A stretch of DNA of 64,000 bases from Candidatus Puniceispirillum sp. (GCA_020724065.1 DYHQ01000001.1:26782-90781), one strand, 5' to 3'; shown: positions 54,201 through 57,328, counted from the first letter of the stretch. The notes: generated from the letters alone by a model not told the origin. Made by a program: numbers and translations.

Positions 54201-54227
54201 CTGCTCAAGATTGCGGTGGTGAAGTGA
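51225..54227 (+). CDS. T9SS cargo protein with an M6 (immune-inhibitor-A-like) metallopeptidase-homology domain that lacks the HExxH zinc site, plus FG-GAP/VCBS-like repeats and a CTD
   Basis: The M6-like block is VVFHAGVGKD...KLFGNWLGLPDLFDTQTGLSGIGRWGMMDQGSGN. The FG-GAP-like segments are FNGDGHSELLVAG and VDLDGDGQDELLLGG. The CTD is WPNPTKD..IRFYDIAGHLIDEL..GVYIAMVEI...KIAVVK. The start is atypical: TTG, or CTG at 51216. Confidence 0.6.
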   Translation: MLVILLLCPCVCLAEGLKPAPMAMAAQAVSERWPVGDTVDVCAIRIEFVPDQMTGTLGDGTMGSAFETGLLIDPLPHDRAYFEDHLLFLRHYYQTVSENKVPFGRLDVYPVEEDSVYRAAYPMWHYNYNMDDELLNRRLTELFLEALQLADSAGVNFSDNDAVVVFHAGVGKDFNIGYDSTPFDLPSAYIAPADFRAYLPEYPNGFLTNDGKLIDRGLLLPEGESQEGFELSVNGVMVKLFGNWLGLPDLFDTQTGLSGIGRWGMMDQGSGNVFALVPAMPEAWSRAYMGWVIPDTIWASAQIETLQIKRFGISTDAPEMLLLPITETECYLLESRAADPDCLGYVECLDRQGRRMRLTLEGEATLLDGAFGVVTEVRNYDFGIPGAGILIWHINETKIQEGLADNTVNADPEHRGVDLVEADGAQDIGEEYGFGFAGGGTELGAPEDAWWDDNDYHKQANANAFQVVFNNTTFPAARTDDWAYSWHELSHFSPISSTMSFRVKNRTRVAGFPIEIPSMLEDSLIVFPGDFNGDGHSELLVAGRDTTILIIDSTATPRQVVLPVWNNMRVVDLDGDGQDELLLGGSRLYIVRNLMGQPDIDSMYREPRNGIYNHLCAGVAPDSSPRILAVWEQDEPGNEFAFGLVLFDGEANLLDDTLDFPSDAIWQVTRVVALEPPPSHSWAIGYEAPGRNELLVMVGLTDEIEIKWKQEGSNGLRPLACVATEAETLLWCESGWRNRWTGEIVREAKCSFSYQILDWDGDGTPETIKDGQACHLAFGTPVEEFPLRAPVQSVVAADFDGDRLPDLLGDDGQWHIFRHSLREPAGFPMARLGEYRFIFHWDSEDYPEAAVLTSPSYFPDGTKWLDLRRLAVGGAPGEREIFCAYSDPSQFDPNPTYFYVVEHGIGSQAYSRSDWVYAWPNPTKDISNIRLTLPFHAQANIRFYDIAGHLIDELSATVSPGYSDVAWDVSRVTSGVYIAMVEIVGDGKTERALLKIAVVK

Positions 54228-57200
54228 GTGCGAGGCTGATAGTCTTCTCTCGGTGGCAATGGAGCCTATGCCTCTTCATTCTGCTTTGGTTTGGGAGTTT
54301 TCCGGCAAAGGCTCGAGATCTTTACAATCATCCCGAGCTGAAATGGCGAAGTTTTGCCACAGAGCATTTTGTCATCTATTTCTCCGACGGTCTTGACAGT
54401 GTTGCGGCTCTGGCAGCCAAGATTGCCGAAGAGATTCATGAACCCCTTTGCGAGCTCTATGATTATCGCCCGGATGGGAAAGTCTCGCTGATTTTTCAGG
54501 ACACGGACGACATCTCGAATGCCGCCAGCTACTTTATGAACAACAAGATATTCTTCTGGGCGACGGCGATGGATTGGGACCTGCGCGGGACGCATCACTG
54601 GCTGCGCAATGTCATCACTCATGAGTACGGGCATATGATACAGCTTGGAGTGTCGCGCAAATGGTCACGACGGATTCCTGCCGGGTATTTTCAATGGATG
54701 GATTATGAGCCGGAGCGCCGTCCCGATGTTCTCTACGGCTATCCCAATCGTGTCGCGAGCTACCCCTATCCCGCTGTAACGATTCCCGCGTGGTTTGCGG
54801 AAGGTACGGCGCAGTTCCAATTGACCGGACGAACCTACGATTTCTGGGACAGCCATCGTGACATGCTACTGCGCTCGGCGACTCTTTCGAGTCGGCTTCT
54901 TTCGTATGAGGAAATGGGCTATTTCGGCAAGACATCCCTCGAAGCCGAGATGGTTTACAATCAGGGATTTTCTTTGACCAAGTACATTGCTGACCATGCG
55001 GGCGGCCCCGAAGCTCTCTCCAAAATCAGTGCGGCGATGAATTCGCCGTTCCCCATCACATTCAGTCGCGCTCTAAGAAAAACGACCGGCAAGTCGGGCG
55101 ACGAGTGGTATCGTCTGTGGAAAGGTCATCTTGAGCAAGAGTACGGCGCGTTGCAGAATCGAATCACCCCCACAGTCGTGGCCACGGATACGGTTCCTAC
55201 GACAGGCTCGGTCAATCTCTTCCCACGGCTTTCACCCGATGGCCGCTTAGTCGCTTTTATCTCCAATCAGGGTCGAGACTATGAGAGCCAGTCAAGTCTC
55301 TACTCATACGATGTGGAGACAAAAGGAGTAAAGAAGCTGGCGGGCAGTGTTCAGGGAGCGCTCTGCTGGCTGCCCGACGGCAAGGGAATTATCTTTTCTC
55401 GTCGAGCATTGAACAGTCAGACGGGGTCTCTGCAATTTGACCTGTATCTCTATCTCCTGGAGGAGGAGAAAGAGATTCGACTGACCAAAGGTCTTCGTGC
55501 TGAAGGCCCTGATTTGTCTCCTGACGGCAAGACCCTGGCTTTTACGATCAATGAAGGCGGCAATCGAGATCTGGCCTTGATGCCGATGCCCAGCGACTAT
55601 CTTTCCAAGAAACACAAACCGCTTTCCAACGATGCGGTAGTCTGCCGCTATCGGGGCTGCGCCGGTGTTCAATACTACCACCCTCGCTGGAGCCCTGACG
55701 GTCGGCGGTTGGTCGCTGCGTCCAGTGAAAGGGAAGGTCGAGATATTCACATTTTCGGTGTATCGTCCGGCGCCGATTCCCTCTGGCTGGAGAAGATCAT
55801 TCCAGGCCAAAATATGGAATTGCGGGATCCCACTTTCTGCGAGGACGGAAATCATCTTGCCACCGCCCACGACAAGAGTGGAATATCGAACATCTATCGA
55901 ATAGACCTTGAGACGGATGCGCGCGAGCCATTAACCTCCGTGGTTGGGGGGGCCTACTACCCCGATTTGCGAGAGGGTCGGCTTGCATTCTGTGATTTCA
56001 CGGGCCACGGGTTCAGGATTTGCGTCATTCATCATGTCGAACCTATCAAACTTCCCGCAGACCATCTTGACCATGAGACCTACGCTTCCCGGGTGCCCGA
56101 GCCGACCTATGACAATCGGTTTCAAGTGCCCGAGGTATCCTCCTACAAACCACGATTCGACAATCTCTACTGGTTCCCGCGGATCATGATTGACTACGGT
56201 ACGGTGAAACCCGGAACCTATGTTTGGCTCACGGACATCTTGGGCAAACTTGATTTCATCGGCGGATTTGCGATGAATAGCAAAAAGGATTATGATCTCT
56301 ACGGCCAAGTGGAATATCGTGTTTTCTATCCGACGATTTTTGCCGAAATCTTCAATATGCAACGCCGCTTGTCTCAGCACTTTGCAGATTCGACCCGCAT
56401 TATTGATGAGAGCGAGGGCGAGCCAATCTACGACCGCTATCGAATCCGTTATCGCTACAATTTGACCGAGGTGGATGCCGGTCTGAAGTGGCCACTGGGG
56501 AGATCTTCTTACTTGAAATTGACAGGCATCTATGATCGTTACACCGCTCATAATCGGTTTGACGACGGAACGGCTATAGCACTGACTTATTTCAAAGGAA
56601 TGTCGGCGCAGCTCGCCTATTACACCAATCAAGTGAGACGAGATGTGGATAGTCCGATCAATCCTTCGGCGGGCTACTACGGATTTCTGCGTTGCACGCG
56701 TGCCAACCAGAAATTCTTCACCGGTTTTCGCATTGACGCCGACAAGTTCATCCTGGTGGAAGTGTACGAACCGTACAACTATGACCTCTTTGAAGGCGGA
56801 TTCGAGAAGTACTTCTCGTTGCCTTTTGGCTCGCATGCGTTTGCTCTGCGTTTCCAAGGAGGCTGGATTGACAAAACGGTTGATCCTTTCTTCTATATCT
56901 TTGCGGGCGGCCTACCGGGGATGAGAGGTTATTCCTATTACAGTCTTGGCGGCGAGCGCATGGCGGTTGCCACCACAACCTACCGTTTTCCCATCATTAA
57001 GCGCGCAGGGTGGAATCTTTATCCTCTTTCAATCAATCGCATCTATGGAAATCTCTTTTGCGATGTCGGCGATGCGTGGGTGGGGGATTTTGAGAGCGGC
57101 CGCGTGAAGAAGGATGTGGGAGCGGGTCTGAGGATTCAAATGCACTCGTTCTACTCCTATCCTACAGCGCTGTCCGTGGATGTTGCCTATGGTTTTGACC

Positions 57201-57328
57201 GATTCACGCATAAGGAAGAGGATTTTGAAGCAACCTACGGCAAAGAATGGCGCTATTATGTGACTGTGTTGTTTGATTTCTACAATCCTTTCACGGAGGG
57301 AATTGCGGAGGGCATTTCCCTCAAATGA
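54224..57328 (+). CDS. Outer-membrane fusion protein: MA-clan zinc metallopeptidase domain (HEYGH), TolB-like beta-propeller, Omp85/BamA-like C-terminal barrel
   Basis: GTG start with a signal peptide (SARLIVFSRWQWSLCLFILLWFGSFPAKA). It overlaps the upstream stop (GTGA). The peptidase motif is NVITHEYGHMIQ with a downstream WFAEGTAQF. The propeller has repeated SPDG repeats (LSPDGRLVAF, LSPDGKTLAF, WSPDGRRLVA). The C-terminus has the Omp85-like GAGLRIQ....SVDVAYGF...FDFYNPF. Confidence 0.5.
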   Translation: MSARLIVFSRWQWSLCLFILLWFGSFPAKARDLYNHPELKWRSFATEHFVIYFSDGLDSVAALAAKIAEEIHEPLCELYDYRPDGKVSLIFQDTDDISNAASYFMNNKIFFWATAMDWDLRGTHHWLRNVITHEYGHMIQLGVSRKWSRRIPAGYFQWMDYEPERRPDVLYGYPNRVASYPYPAVTIPAWFAEGTAQFQLTGRTYDFWDSHRDMLLRSATLSSRLLSYEEMGYFGKTSLEAEMVYNQGFSLTKYIADHAGGPEALSKISAAMNSPFPITFSRALRKTTGKSGDEWYRLWKGHLEQEYGALQNRITPTVVATDTVPTTGSVNLFPRLSPDGRLVAFISNQGRDYESQSSLYSYDVETKGVKKLAGSVQGALCWLPDGKGIIFSRRALNSQTGSLQFDLYLYLLEEEKEIRLTKGLRAEGPDLSPDGKTLAFTINEGGNRDLALMPMPSDYLSKKHKPLSNDAVVCRYRGCAGVQYYHPRWSPDGRRLVAASSEREGRDIHIFGVSSGADSLWLEKIIPGQNMELRDPTFCEDGNHLATAHDKSGISNIYRIDLETDAREPLTSVVGGAYYPDLREGRLAFCDFTGHGFRICVIHHVEPIKLPADHLDHETYASRVPEPTYDNRFQVPEVSSYKPRFDNLYWFPRIMIDYGTVKPGTYVWLTDILGKLDFIGGFAMNSKKDYDLYGQVEYRVFYPTIFAEIFNMQRRLSQHFADSTRIIDESEGEPIYDRYRIRYRYNLTEVDAGLKWPLGRSSYLKLTGIYDRYTAHNRFDDGTAIALTYFKGMSAQLAYYTNQVRRDVDSPINPSAGYYGFLRCTRANQKFFTGFRIDADKFILVEVYEPYNYDLFEGGFEKYFSLPFGSHAFALRFQGGWIDKTVDPFFYIFAGGLPGMRGYSYYSLGGERMAVATTTYRFPIIKRAGWNLYPLSINRIYGNLFCDVGDAWVGDFESGRVKKDVGAGLRIQMHSFYSYPTALSVDVAYGFDRFTHKEEDFEATYGKEWRYYVTVLFDFYNPFTEGIAEGISLK

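Follow-up and report, generated by a model that had tools for sequence, protein, structure and literature searches.

A conserved peptidase-propeller-Omp85 protein encoded beside PorV, and its possible link to T9SS

The gene at 54224..57328 of the window (the whole 64,000-nucleotide stretch of DNA analysed here) almost certainly encodes one exported outer-membrane protein with four ordered parts: a signal peptide, a gluzincin zinc-metallopeptidase, a six-bladed TolB-type propeller and a 16-stranded Omp85 barrel devoid of POTRA domains. The protein belongs to the uncharacterised "WD40-like" (peptidase and WD40) subfamily of Omp85 proteins, and its architecture is not new. For its gene context beside PorV, M6-like and DUF5683 genes, no published description was found. 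We propose, tentatively but as a serious possibility, an outer-membrane-anchored, periplasm-facing protease which serves the PorV module of the T9SS.

Gene model and domain architecture

The features of the gene, in window coordinates, are as follows.

54224..57328, + strand: whole gene, 1034-aa peptidase/propeller/Omp85-barrel protein; GTG start, stop codon 57326-57328
54224..54313, + strand: Sec-type signal peptide, aa 1-30, as read from the sequence; hydrophobic helix aa 2-24
54323..55189, + strand: clan MA (gluzincin) zinc-metallopeptidase catalytic domain, aa ~34-322
54620..54634, + strand: HEYGH zinc-binding/catalytic motif (H133, E134, H137), invariant in the homologue alignment
54791..54817, + strand: WFAEGTAQF segment with E193, presumed third zinc ligand; conserved, matches the Peptidase_MA_2 profile
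55190..56038, + strand: six-bladed TolB/PD40-type beta-propeller, aa ~323-605
56039..56167, + strand: propeller-barrel linker, about 43-45 aa, not POTRA; one short helix only (620-623) in the AF2 model
56168..57274, + strand: 16-stranded Omp85-superfamily beta-barrel, aa 649-1017, ending in F1017 (LFDF)
56906..56944, + strand: loop-6 hallmark GGLPGMRGYSYYS (aa 895-907), lying between strands 11 and 12 of the barrel; from homologue conservation and TamA alignment
57056..57070, + strand: strand-13 hallmark motif F-x-D-x-G (FCDVG, aa 945-949); from homologue conservation
57275..57325, + strand: disordered C-terminal tail past the last barrel strand, aa 1018-1034; AF2 pLDDT <50 for aa 1026-1034

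The frame from the GTG at 54224 to 57328 comprises 1034 codons with zero internal stops upon translation. The longest ORF opens at a TTG at 54122, and the GTG is preferred on three grounds: its 4-nt overlap (GTGA) with the TGA of the upstream gene, the adjoining signal-peptide-like helix, and an identical 1034-aa product already present in a public protein collection as an NCBI gene call. In the AF2 single-chain model of the protein (pLDDT 91, pTM 0.87), a low-confidence stretch (aa 25-33) comes after the helix of aa 2-24, and cleavage of the signal peptide is likely to follow A-K-A30. All 105 homologues end in a C-terminal tail, 3-24 residues long (median 14). A sequence-only reading of this DNA had described a single polypeptide, calling for a structure prediction and a check for stop codons at the domain junctions, and both bear it out. 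That two or three separate genes were fused by misassembly or frameshift is thus improbable in the extreme: the frame is continuous, the single-chain model is confident, and more than 100 colinear full-length homologues of ~1000-1060 aa, from independent assemblies and sources, rule out a fusion artefact.

The same reading had noticed an intact HExxH (THEYGH) and the WFAEGTAQF segment in a Peptidase_MA-like context. Both motifs are present: HEYGH is invariant in 105/105 aligned homologues (HExxH in 119/120 homologues), as are W190, A192, E193, G194 and Q197 of the second segment, and the full set H133, E134, H137, E193 and Y245 is unchanged across the 105 sequences. By analogy with other gluzincins, E193, at a spacing of 55 residues from HExxH, is presumed to be the third zinc ligand; the peptidase, its catalytic residues being intact and invariant, is predicted to be active. 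The combination of HExxH and a downstream Glu in a thermolysin-like fold is that of clan MA(E), the gluzincins. The Peptidase_MA-like context stands for the homologues, since PF13485 (Peptidase_MA_2) matches 41/41 homologous segments at E<=0.1 (best 4.9e-13), yet the window's own N-domain, in which the matching portion is the WFAEGTAQF segment, scores below threshold (17 bits vs a gathering score of 32.4, E 0.0056). Searched against the PDB with a sequence profile, the N-terminal domain gave nothing meaningful (best E 0.18, a dynein light chain; no M1 chain), and a fold search placed the peptidase near M1 enzymes, including tricorn-interacting factor F3. The domain has in common with M1 aminopeptidases and M30 lugdulysin the thermolysin-like catalytic fold, with HExxH plus downstream Glu and Tyr. 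It differs from the M1 enzymes in lacking their N-terminal and C-terminal domains and the GxMEN exopeptidase motif (0/105 sequences), and an M1 aminopeptidase proper was rejected on these grounds.

The middle of the protein, previously read as a TolB-like propeller, indeed matches PF07676 (PD40) and has six blades, with weak matches to the S9/DPP-IV and Tricorn_N families. An orthologue of TolB (Tol-Pal) was rejected, as the equivalog score lies far under the cut-off and the N-terminal alpha/beta TolB domain is missing. The absence of POTRA domains before the barrel also holds: PF07244 has no match in the protein at E<=0.1, and the short linker stands in that place.

The Omp85/BamA-type barrel had been proposed from C-terminal patterns, of which GAGLR, VDVAYGF and LFDF are all present, F1017 being invariant in the aligned homologues. 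The protein conforms to the Omp85 superfamily in its 16-stranded C-terminal barrel, its PF01103 match above the gathering score (31.5 bits vs 24, E 1.7e-7, aa 750-972) and both hallmark motifs. In loop 6, which reads M-R-G-Y at aa 900-903 and aligns to the TamA "aGG..sIRGY" segment, G895, G896, G899 and G902 are each conserved in 105/105 sequences and Y903 in 104/105, with R82/K22/H1 at position 901. In strand 13, whose F-x-D-x-G at aa 945-949 we take to be Omp85 "motif 4", F945 is kept in 90/105 and G949 in 105/105, with D82/E23 at position 947. A basic residue occupies position 901 in 104/105 (His in the remaining one) and an acidic residue position 947 in 105/105; covariation between the two was rejected (R-D 61, R-E 21, K-D 20, K-E 2, H-D 1), the charges alone being conserved in the 105 sequences and not the residue pairing. 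With both hallmark motifs kept, the barrel is a structurally canonical Omp85. The protein nevertheless falls outside the POTRA-bearing class (BamA/TamA/TpsB), scoring 11 and 14 bits with the NCBIfam BamA and TamA models (cut-offs 1050 and 625). BamA and TamA are POTRA-containing insertases, whereas the N-terminal region here is an enzyme plus a propeller.

The novelty of this architecture, implied by the earlier reading, was overstated. The "WD40-like" subfamily was defined by Heinz & Lithgow (2014, Front Microbiol 5:370, PMC4104836), and Omp85s with "divergent WD40 and peptidase domains" were restated in 2024 (PMC11358297). The PF07676 + PF01103 architecture of our protein is that of Data Sheet 2 of the 2014 study, and the structural matches of its parts (TolB, BamA/TamA and aminopeptidase) agree with supplementary Table S3, which reports BamA/TamA, TolB and aminopeptidase matches for the subfamily. 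As listed, the subfamily is heterogeneous, one member's best match in the aminopeptidase column being tricorn protease (PMC4104836). No function was given there, the main text speculating only on a BamA-BamB-like fusion; a topology question was raised for non-POTRA Omp85 fusions, and T9SS and gene context were not mentioned (PMC4104836). Caldithrix abyssi H1XQ58 is a listed member (PMC4104836), and two Caldithrix-labelled loci (L013 and L053) carry an orthologue of our protein at 37-41% identity; an exact-sequence look-up of the L013 protein gave no match. The family is large, with 395 clusters (50% identity) sharing the peptidase domain at E<=1e-30 and a relative encoded in each of 584 or more species-representative genomes. 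Neither Pfam nor NCBIfam has a curated model for it, and NCBI calls its members only "PD40 domain-containing protein".

Gene neighbourhood across phyla

The neighbouring genes in the window are the following.

45975..50027, + strand: PorU (T9SS C25-family sortase); NF033707 646 bits vs cut-off 420, Peptidase_C25 2e-71
50129..51175, + strand: PorV-family outer-membrane protein; NF033709 278 bits vs cut-off 90
51225..54227, + strand: 1000-aa M6-like pseudo-protease carrying FG-GAP repeats and, at its C-terminus, a T9SS sorting domain; matches to Por_Secre_tail, FG-GAP and, under the cut-off of 600, NF052323 (428 bits)
57450..58277, + strand: DUF5683 protein with signal peptide, downstream; PF18935 28.9 bits
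58303..58947, + strand: another DUF5683-like gene, with the L-V-P-G-x-G-Q-L motif of the first

The gene had been placed right after a porU/porV pair. Both are indeed upstream, the PorV-family gene scoring below the cut-off of the PorV equivalog model (207 bits vs 250), but the M6-like gene intervenes, its stop overlapping the start at 54224. This M6-like protein has KLFGN in place of the M6-peptidase HExxH and is, judging by its residues, catalytically dead; HExxH is likewise missing there in its orthologues (68/68 loci), as against the invariant HExxH of our protein. The second DUF5683-like gene, at 58303..58947, had no Pfam or NCBIfam match. One promoter-like site was seen upstream of porU (45929-45957); the terminator scan gave counts equal to the shuffled expectation, and the promoter scan was similarly uninformative.

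Synteny was counted in the best 80 species-representative genome loci, which span several candidate phyla at 34-76% identity. The block runs in the order PorV, catalytically dead M6-like T9SS cargo, our gene and two DUF5683-like genes, and occurs in KSB1, Calditrichota, Marinimicrobia, Latescibacterota, Ignavibacteria and Kryptonia, which also answers whether the architecture exists in other phyla. Among these best 80 loci, PorV lies upstream in 57/58 and the M6-like cargo gene in 59/60, while DUF5683 lies downstream in 67/69 and a second DUF5683-like gene in 55/63; PorU is adjacent in only about half (27/51). Thus, the conserved neighbour is PorV together with the inactive M6-like cargo protein, and not the porU/porV pair as such. 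The M6-like stop overlaps or abuts the start of our gene in the window and in five further loci (L001, L002, L004, L013 and L053), and the outer flanks vary between loci while the block stays, at 35-40% protein identity across phyla.

The genomic association with core T9SS genes extends to a much more distant relative (P0220/L085), where the trio of PorV, M6-like and DUF5683 genes is kept within entirely different flanks, but not to two others: one adjoins an AsmA/TamB-like gene (L086) and another an LpoB/CsgG-like gene (L088). Presumably, the accessions in the 2014 catalogue also include taxa without T9SS (myxobacteria, proteobacteria). Because of these taxa and the two relatives outside the PorV context, the ancestral function would not be T9SS-specific. 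The gene order could also reflect co-regulation of envelope genes instead of physical partnership. The suggested role in surface-protein processing is strengthened in its T9SS link by the strongly conserved synteny, and the link stays a suggestion.

A proposed periplasmic protease and its alternatives

Several known systems offer partial parallels. BepA of E. coli, a TPR-bearing zinc protease of family M48, is a periplasmic HExxH protease which acts at BAM and clears or assists stalled outer-membrane clients (PMC13067283). Our protein resembles it in joining an HExxH protease to a protein-interaction domain, a functional analogy for the mechanism proposed below. PlpD (type Vd, patatin-POTRA-Omp85) is similar in that an enzyme domain lies N-terminal to an Omp85-type barrel; it contains POTRA and its passenger is a lipase, whose export by type Vd secretion has been proposed, whereas our protein is without POTRA and without a sign of passenger export. 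The likeness to the PorU-PorV-PorQ-PorZ complex of Porphyromonas gingivalis lies in the clustering with PorU, PorV and a sorting-domain propeller protein, which resembles PorZ in its C-terminal domain only (NF052228, E 9e-5). We know of no Omp85-type or metallopeptidase component in that complex, and none was found in a literature search. The protein itself was rejected as a T9SS cargo: no sorting domain (Por_Secre_tail/CHU_C) was matched, and its C-terminus is the barrel.

In the mechanism that we propose, the C-terminal barrel would be inserted by BAM, and the protease and propeller would hang beneath the outer membrane, where BamA carries its POTRA domains. This periplasmic orientation is reasonably probable. 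Its basis is Omp85 precedent, the N-terminal domains of these proteins lying in the periplasm, and the strand order of the AF2 model: with loop 6 between strands 11 and 12, odd-numbered strands run from the periplasm outwards, and the linker therefore meets strand 1 at the periplasmic face. Extended polypeptides might dock on the propeller or be gated by it, as in TolB or the propeller-gated oligopeptidases, and cutting would occur at the HExxH/E193/Y245 site. The gene would be translationally coupled to that of the catalytically dead M6-like T9SS cargo, and this coupling, with the near-constant PorV and frequent PorU, leads us to propose T9SS-related clients: cargo, sorting-domain fragments or components stalled beneath or at the PorV module, which may be processed or cleared by quality control. 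Such a role would resemble that of BepA for BAM, with the difference that our protease carries an Omp85 anchor within its own chain. A functional linkage to the PorV module we consider fairly probable; a specific quality-control or processing role is a more doubtful matter.

The orientation could be reversed, the barrel exporting its own peptidase and propeller to the surface, where, beside PorU and the M6-like protein, they would trim or mature T9SS cargo or degrade external protein. PorU, PorV and the sorting-domain cargo are surface or outer-membrane T9SS proteins, and a surface-exposed protease fits better with the surface action of PorU, the M6-like protein and PorV-bound cargo; the translational coupling to a cargo gene is also consistent with it, and this question of topology had been raised by Heinz & Lithgow for Omp85 fusions without POTRA (PMC4104836). 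Yet the strand parity of loop 6 puts the linker at the periplasmic face, neither POTRA nor a recognisable passenger-linker element is present, and the barrel retains the loop-6/strand-13 lock typical of closed BamA/TamA-type barrels. Since we also know of no Omp85 barrel through which a peptidase-propeller of 600 residues is exported, surface display seems improbable. Retention of those hallmark motifs could instead point to a specialised insertase for T9SS barrels such as the PorV family, in which the propeller replaces POTRA/BamB and the protease removes failed substrates. This would agree with the BamA-BamB fusion to which the family was likened (PMC4104836) and with the distant relative adjoining an AsmA/TamB-like gene, which recalls TamA-TamB. 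The motifs may, however, be purely structural, and our protein has no POTRA. BamA, TamA and TpsB proteins depend on such domains to handle their substrates. An insertase is the least probable of the functional readings.

A role unrelated to T9SS, in which the barrel merely anchors a general oligopeptidase of the periplasm or a housekeeping protease of the envelope, is unlikely, though somewhat less so. Here the propeller would limit access to short peptides (tricorn/prolyl-oligopeptidase-type), and the operon position would reflect co-regulation, for example for digesting peptides from T9SS-secreted proteases. It draws on the S9/DPP-IV and Tricorn_N matches, the fold proximity to M1 enzymes including factor F3, the large family and the distant relatives outside the PorV context. 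Against it, the exopeptidase motif GxMEN is absent, the PorV/M6-like/target/DUF5683 block persists across phyla while its flanks vary, and the stop/start overlap with the M6-like gene is hard to account for by co-regulation alone.

The protein could be an undescribed, conserved component for T9SS cargo handling (PorV/attachment) in non-Bacteroidia FCB lineages, an active, Omp85-anchored zinc protease in obligate pairing with a dead M6-like surface protein and PorV, although we hold this identification to be speculative. The literature search found no published tie of this architecture to T9SS, nor T9SS work in the relevant phyla; to our knowledge, T9SS has never been studied in KSB1, Calditrichota, Marinimicrobia or Latescibacterota, and no function is known for non-POTRA Omp85 subfamilies. 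With its clustering beside PorV and a dead M6-like cargo, this orphan architecture now has a concrete hypothesis that can be tested, one concerning the processing or policing of T9SS cargo in these four phyla. Omp85 proteins are universal machines of outer-membrane biogenesis. Were the proposal true, the orphan "WD40-like" subfamily would for the first time have a function assigned to it, and T9SS would possess, in addition to the sortase PorU, a second proteolytic activity. A genuine link would also take the T9SS parts list past the Porphyromonas and Flavobacterium paradigm.

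A single polypeptide of three domains

The gene at 54224..57328 (+) is a single reading frame of 1034 codons without interruption. The start codon GTG 54224 is preferred over TTG 54122, where the mechanically longest ORF begins, because it forms a GTGA with the TGA stop of the preceding gene, because a hydrophobic signal-peptide-like helix (residues 2-24) follows directly, and because the exact 1034-aa product is already public through an NCBI gene call. When 5.8 billion proteins were searched, over 120 full-length relatives were found in JGI, NCBI, ENA and Logan assemblies; a few incomplete entries aside, they are about 990-1090 aa long, share 38-91% identity and cover 94-100% of the query. 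With each species represented by one genome, at least 584 genomes encode a relative. The three domains are colinear throughout an alignment of 105 sequences. With a continuous frame and colinear full-length homologues from independent sources, a fusion produced by misassembly or frameshift is excluded, any artefact being vanishingly improbable. The sequence-only reading, which had described a zinc metallopeptidase, a TolB-like propeller and an Omp85-like barrel in one chain, is confirmed as an observation and supported in its domain assignment; the features that it quoted (THEYGH, WFAEGTAQF, SPDG-type repeats, GAGLR, VDVAYGF and LFDF) all occur in the translation, and this architecture is assigned with near certainty.

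The HExxH motif is found in 119 of 120 homologues, the sole exception being an incomplete sequence, while H133, E134, H137, E193 (in WFAEG), Q197 and Y245 show no variation among 105 sequences. The proposed relation to Peptidase_MA_2 holds for the homologues, whose N-terminal segments all match (41/41; best E 4.9e-13), but the protein's own segment is weak, at 17 bits vs the gathering value of 32.4. This generic match is the only Pfam coverage of the domain, and a sequence profile search gives no PDB relative. None of the 105 sequences contains GxMEN, the exopeptidase motif of M1 enzymes, and this rules out an M1 aminopeptidase proper. Together with the invariant residues and the Peptidase_MA_2 matches, its absence argues that the N-terminal domain is a divergent member of clan MA and evidently active.

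The C-terminal segment passes the Omp85 Pfam threshold (31.5 bits vs 24), as anticipated, and a barrel profile built from 40 sequences matches TamA chains in an alignment spanning 'aGG..s(I/m)RGY.y.S'. The AF2 model of the full-length protein (pLDDT 91.0, pTM 0.87) has 16 barrel strands between residues 649 and 1016, a loop of 29 residues joining strands 11 and 12, and a linker of just 45 residues before strand 1; no POTRA domain is matched by Pfam. Both hallmarks of the Omp85 superfamily are kept in the family, namely G895-G896-L-x-G899-(M/L)-(R/K)901-G902-Y903 in loop 6 and F945-x-(D/E)947-x-G949 in strand 13. In all homologues a disordered tail of 3-24 residues follows the invariant F1017.

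No curated NCBIfam model was found for this family, and its members are named 'PD40 domain-containing protein', 'WD40 repeat protein', 'Tol biopolymer transport system component' or 'hypothetical'. The protein adds a new member to a subfamily that is known but uncharacterised, the 'WD40-like' Omp85 proteins (Heinz & Lithgow 2014), for which no function has been reported; the architecture by itself is therefore no discovery.

The gene block and its conservation

The genes from porU onward are arranged as follows:

45975..50027, +, PorU (NF033707, 646 bits)
50129..51175, +, PorV-family barrel
51225..54227, +, 1000-aa protein that combines an M6-like domain and FG-GAP repeats with a C-terminal T9SS sorting domain
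54224..57328, +, metallopeptidase-propeller-Omp85 protein
57450..58277, +, DUF5683 protein
58303..58947, +, second DUF5683-like protein, with the common L-V-P-G-x-G-Q-L motif

The Omp85 gene had been placed right after the porU/porV pair; both genes do lie upstream on the same strand, but the M6-like gene intervenes. The two downstream proteins, which both have signal peptides and the common motif L-(V/L)-(V/L)-P-G-(T/W)-G-Q-L, look by sequence like a paralogous DUF5683-like pair; the product of 57450..58277 alone passes the Pfam threshold for DUF5683, and NCBIfam has no model for either. The stretch from porU through the DUF5683 genes is consistent with one transcription unit, since no convincing terminator lies between them in the window. 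The top sigma-70-like promoter match of the + strand (45929..45957, TTGACT-17-TAGAAT, 10/12) is just 5' of the porU start. Further upstream are a GWxTD-domain protein (42310..43761), an ABC ATPase (43758..44510) and a response-regulator protein with an HD-GYP-type HD_5 domain (44617..45828). Locus L001 likewise has a GWxTD protein, an ABC ATPase and an HD-domain protein ahead of porU, and homologues of the last are upstream of PorU in L006, L007, L009, L010 and L012.

The M6-like protein scores 428 bits against NF052323, 'T9SS-dependent M6-like inactivated metalloprotease', below the cut-off of 600. It has KLFGN at the HExxH position of M6 peptidases; in all 68 alignable loci HExxH is missing at the aligned position, and the protein still keeps the following 'LG(L/M)P.L(F/Y)' segment; judged by these residues, it is a conserved pseudo-protease. 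In the window, as in L001, L002, L004, L013 and L053, its stop overlaps or abuts the start of the Omp85 gene. This arrangement and the loss of HExxH argue for the coupling of a dead T9SS-cargo protease to a live Omp85-fused protease near PorV, and by their gene arrangement the two are translationally coupled, with PorV adjoining.

The neighbours were used as tblastn queries against the best 80 species-representative loci (34-76% identity to the Omp85 protein), counting only loci with sufficient flanking sequence. PorV is upstream in 57 of 58 loci and the M6-like gene in 59 of 60, while a DUF5683 gene is downstream in 67 of 69 and its second, DUF5683-like companion is present in 55 of 63. PorU occurs within the 10-kb flank in 27 of 51 loci, and the upstream 10 kb of the other 24 gave no match; the conserved core is thus PorV / M6-like / Omp85 protein / DUF5683, and not porU-porV. 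Two of these 24 were inspected (L024 and L053), and unrelated ORFs of 300-460 aa lie ahead of PorV there. The outer flanks vary from locus to locus.

The architecture, which was to be sought in other phyla, is present across many labelled lineages among these 80 loci, including KSB1, Calditrichota, Marinimicrobia, Latescibacterota, Ignavibacteria, Kryptonia, Delongbacteria, LCP-89, Electryonea and others. The closest species-representative loci (L005, L006, L007, L012 and L055; 56-60% identity) bear the label 'uncultured Alphaproteobacteria bacterium', probably wrongly, because they have genes for PorU, PorV and T9SS cargo and are related to KSB1 and Calditrichota.

Members and modules outside the block

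Linkage to the T9SS is not universal in the wider family. The distant member P0220 (1187 aa, locus L085) keeps PorV, a sorting-domain FG-GAP protein and the Omp85 protein in a completely different neighbourhood; its PorV-family gene (3045..5225; 726 aa) has an additional faint Reg_prop (propeller) match, which suggests a fused PorV variant. A second distant member, P0263 (1207 aa; L086), has no PorV link and is directly followed by an 892-aa AsmA/DUF748/YhdP-type (TamB-like) gene, within the region 715..7090 of that locus, resembling the TamA-TamB pairing of an Omp85 protein with an AsmA-like protein. A third, P0250 (L088), is preceded by an LpoB/CsgG-like gene.

The window also contains a second PorV/PorQ-family gene, 17838..18905 (-), with 183.6 bits for NF033709 and just 78 bits for the PorV equivalog. 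The cluster around it, 15964..27214 (-), may be a second PorV/PorQ-type module; it includes a 1050-aa CarboxypepD_reg, Plug and TonB-dependent-receptor-like protein (21991..25143), a T9SS sorting-domain protein of 669 aa (25205..27214), and ORFs of 626, 287 and 745 aa without assignment.

A proposed role and its alternatives

Loop 6 of Omp85 proteins is extracellular. As it is outside and between strands 11 and 12, strand 1 would begin at the periplasmic face, and the protease and propeller would hang in the periplasm at the usual POTRA place, provided that the linker does not pass through the lumen. This strand order makes a periplasmic orientation the somewhat better prediction, and a surface-displayed protease that exports itself is improbable. 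The protein would then be a periplasm-facing protease anchored in the outer membrane, whose propeller may dock or gate an extended polypeptide and whose clients may be T9SS-related, being cargo, sorting-domain fragments or components stalled at the PorV module. Such a role would make it, by analogy, a fused counterpart of the BepA-BAM arrangement.

A functional linkage to PorV is reasonably probable, while the specific quality-control or processing role is put forward tentatively. A general periplasmic oligopeptidase, its linkage merely regulatory, is unlikely in a family where PorV is so regularly upstream, even with members outside the T9SS context. More doubtful still is a genuine Omp85 insertase serving T9SS barrels; the barrel hallmarks are kept, and a protease and a propeller stand where POTRA domains usually do. 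The preferred reading remains the anchored periplasmic protease.

No description of the PorV / dead-M6 / live-protease-Omp85 / DUF5683 block was found in the literature. This strongly conserved block is what the analysis adds, and it makes the function of an orphan Omp85 family directly testable.
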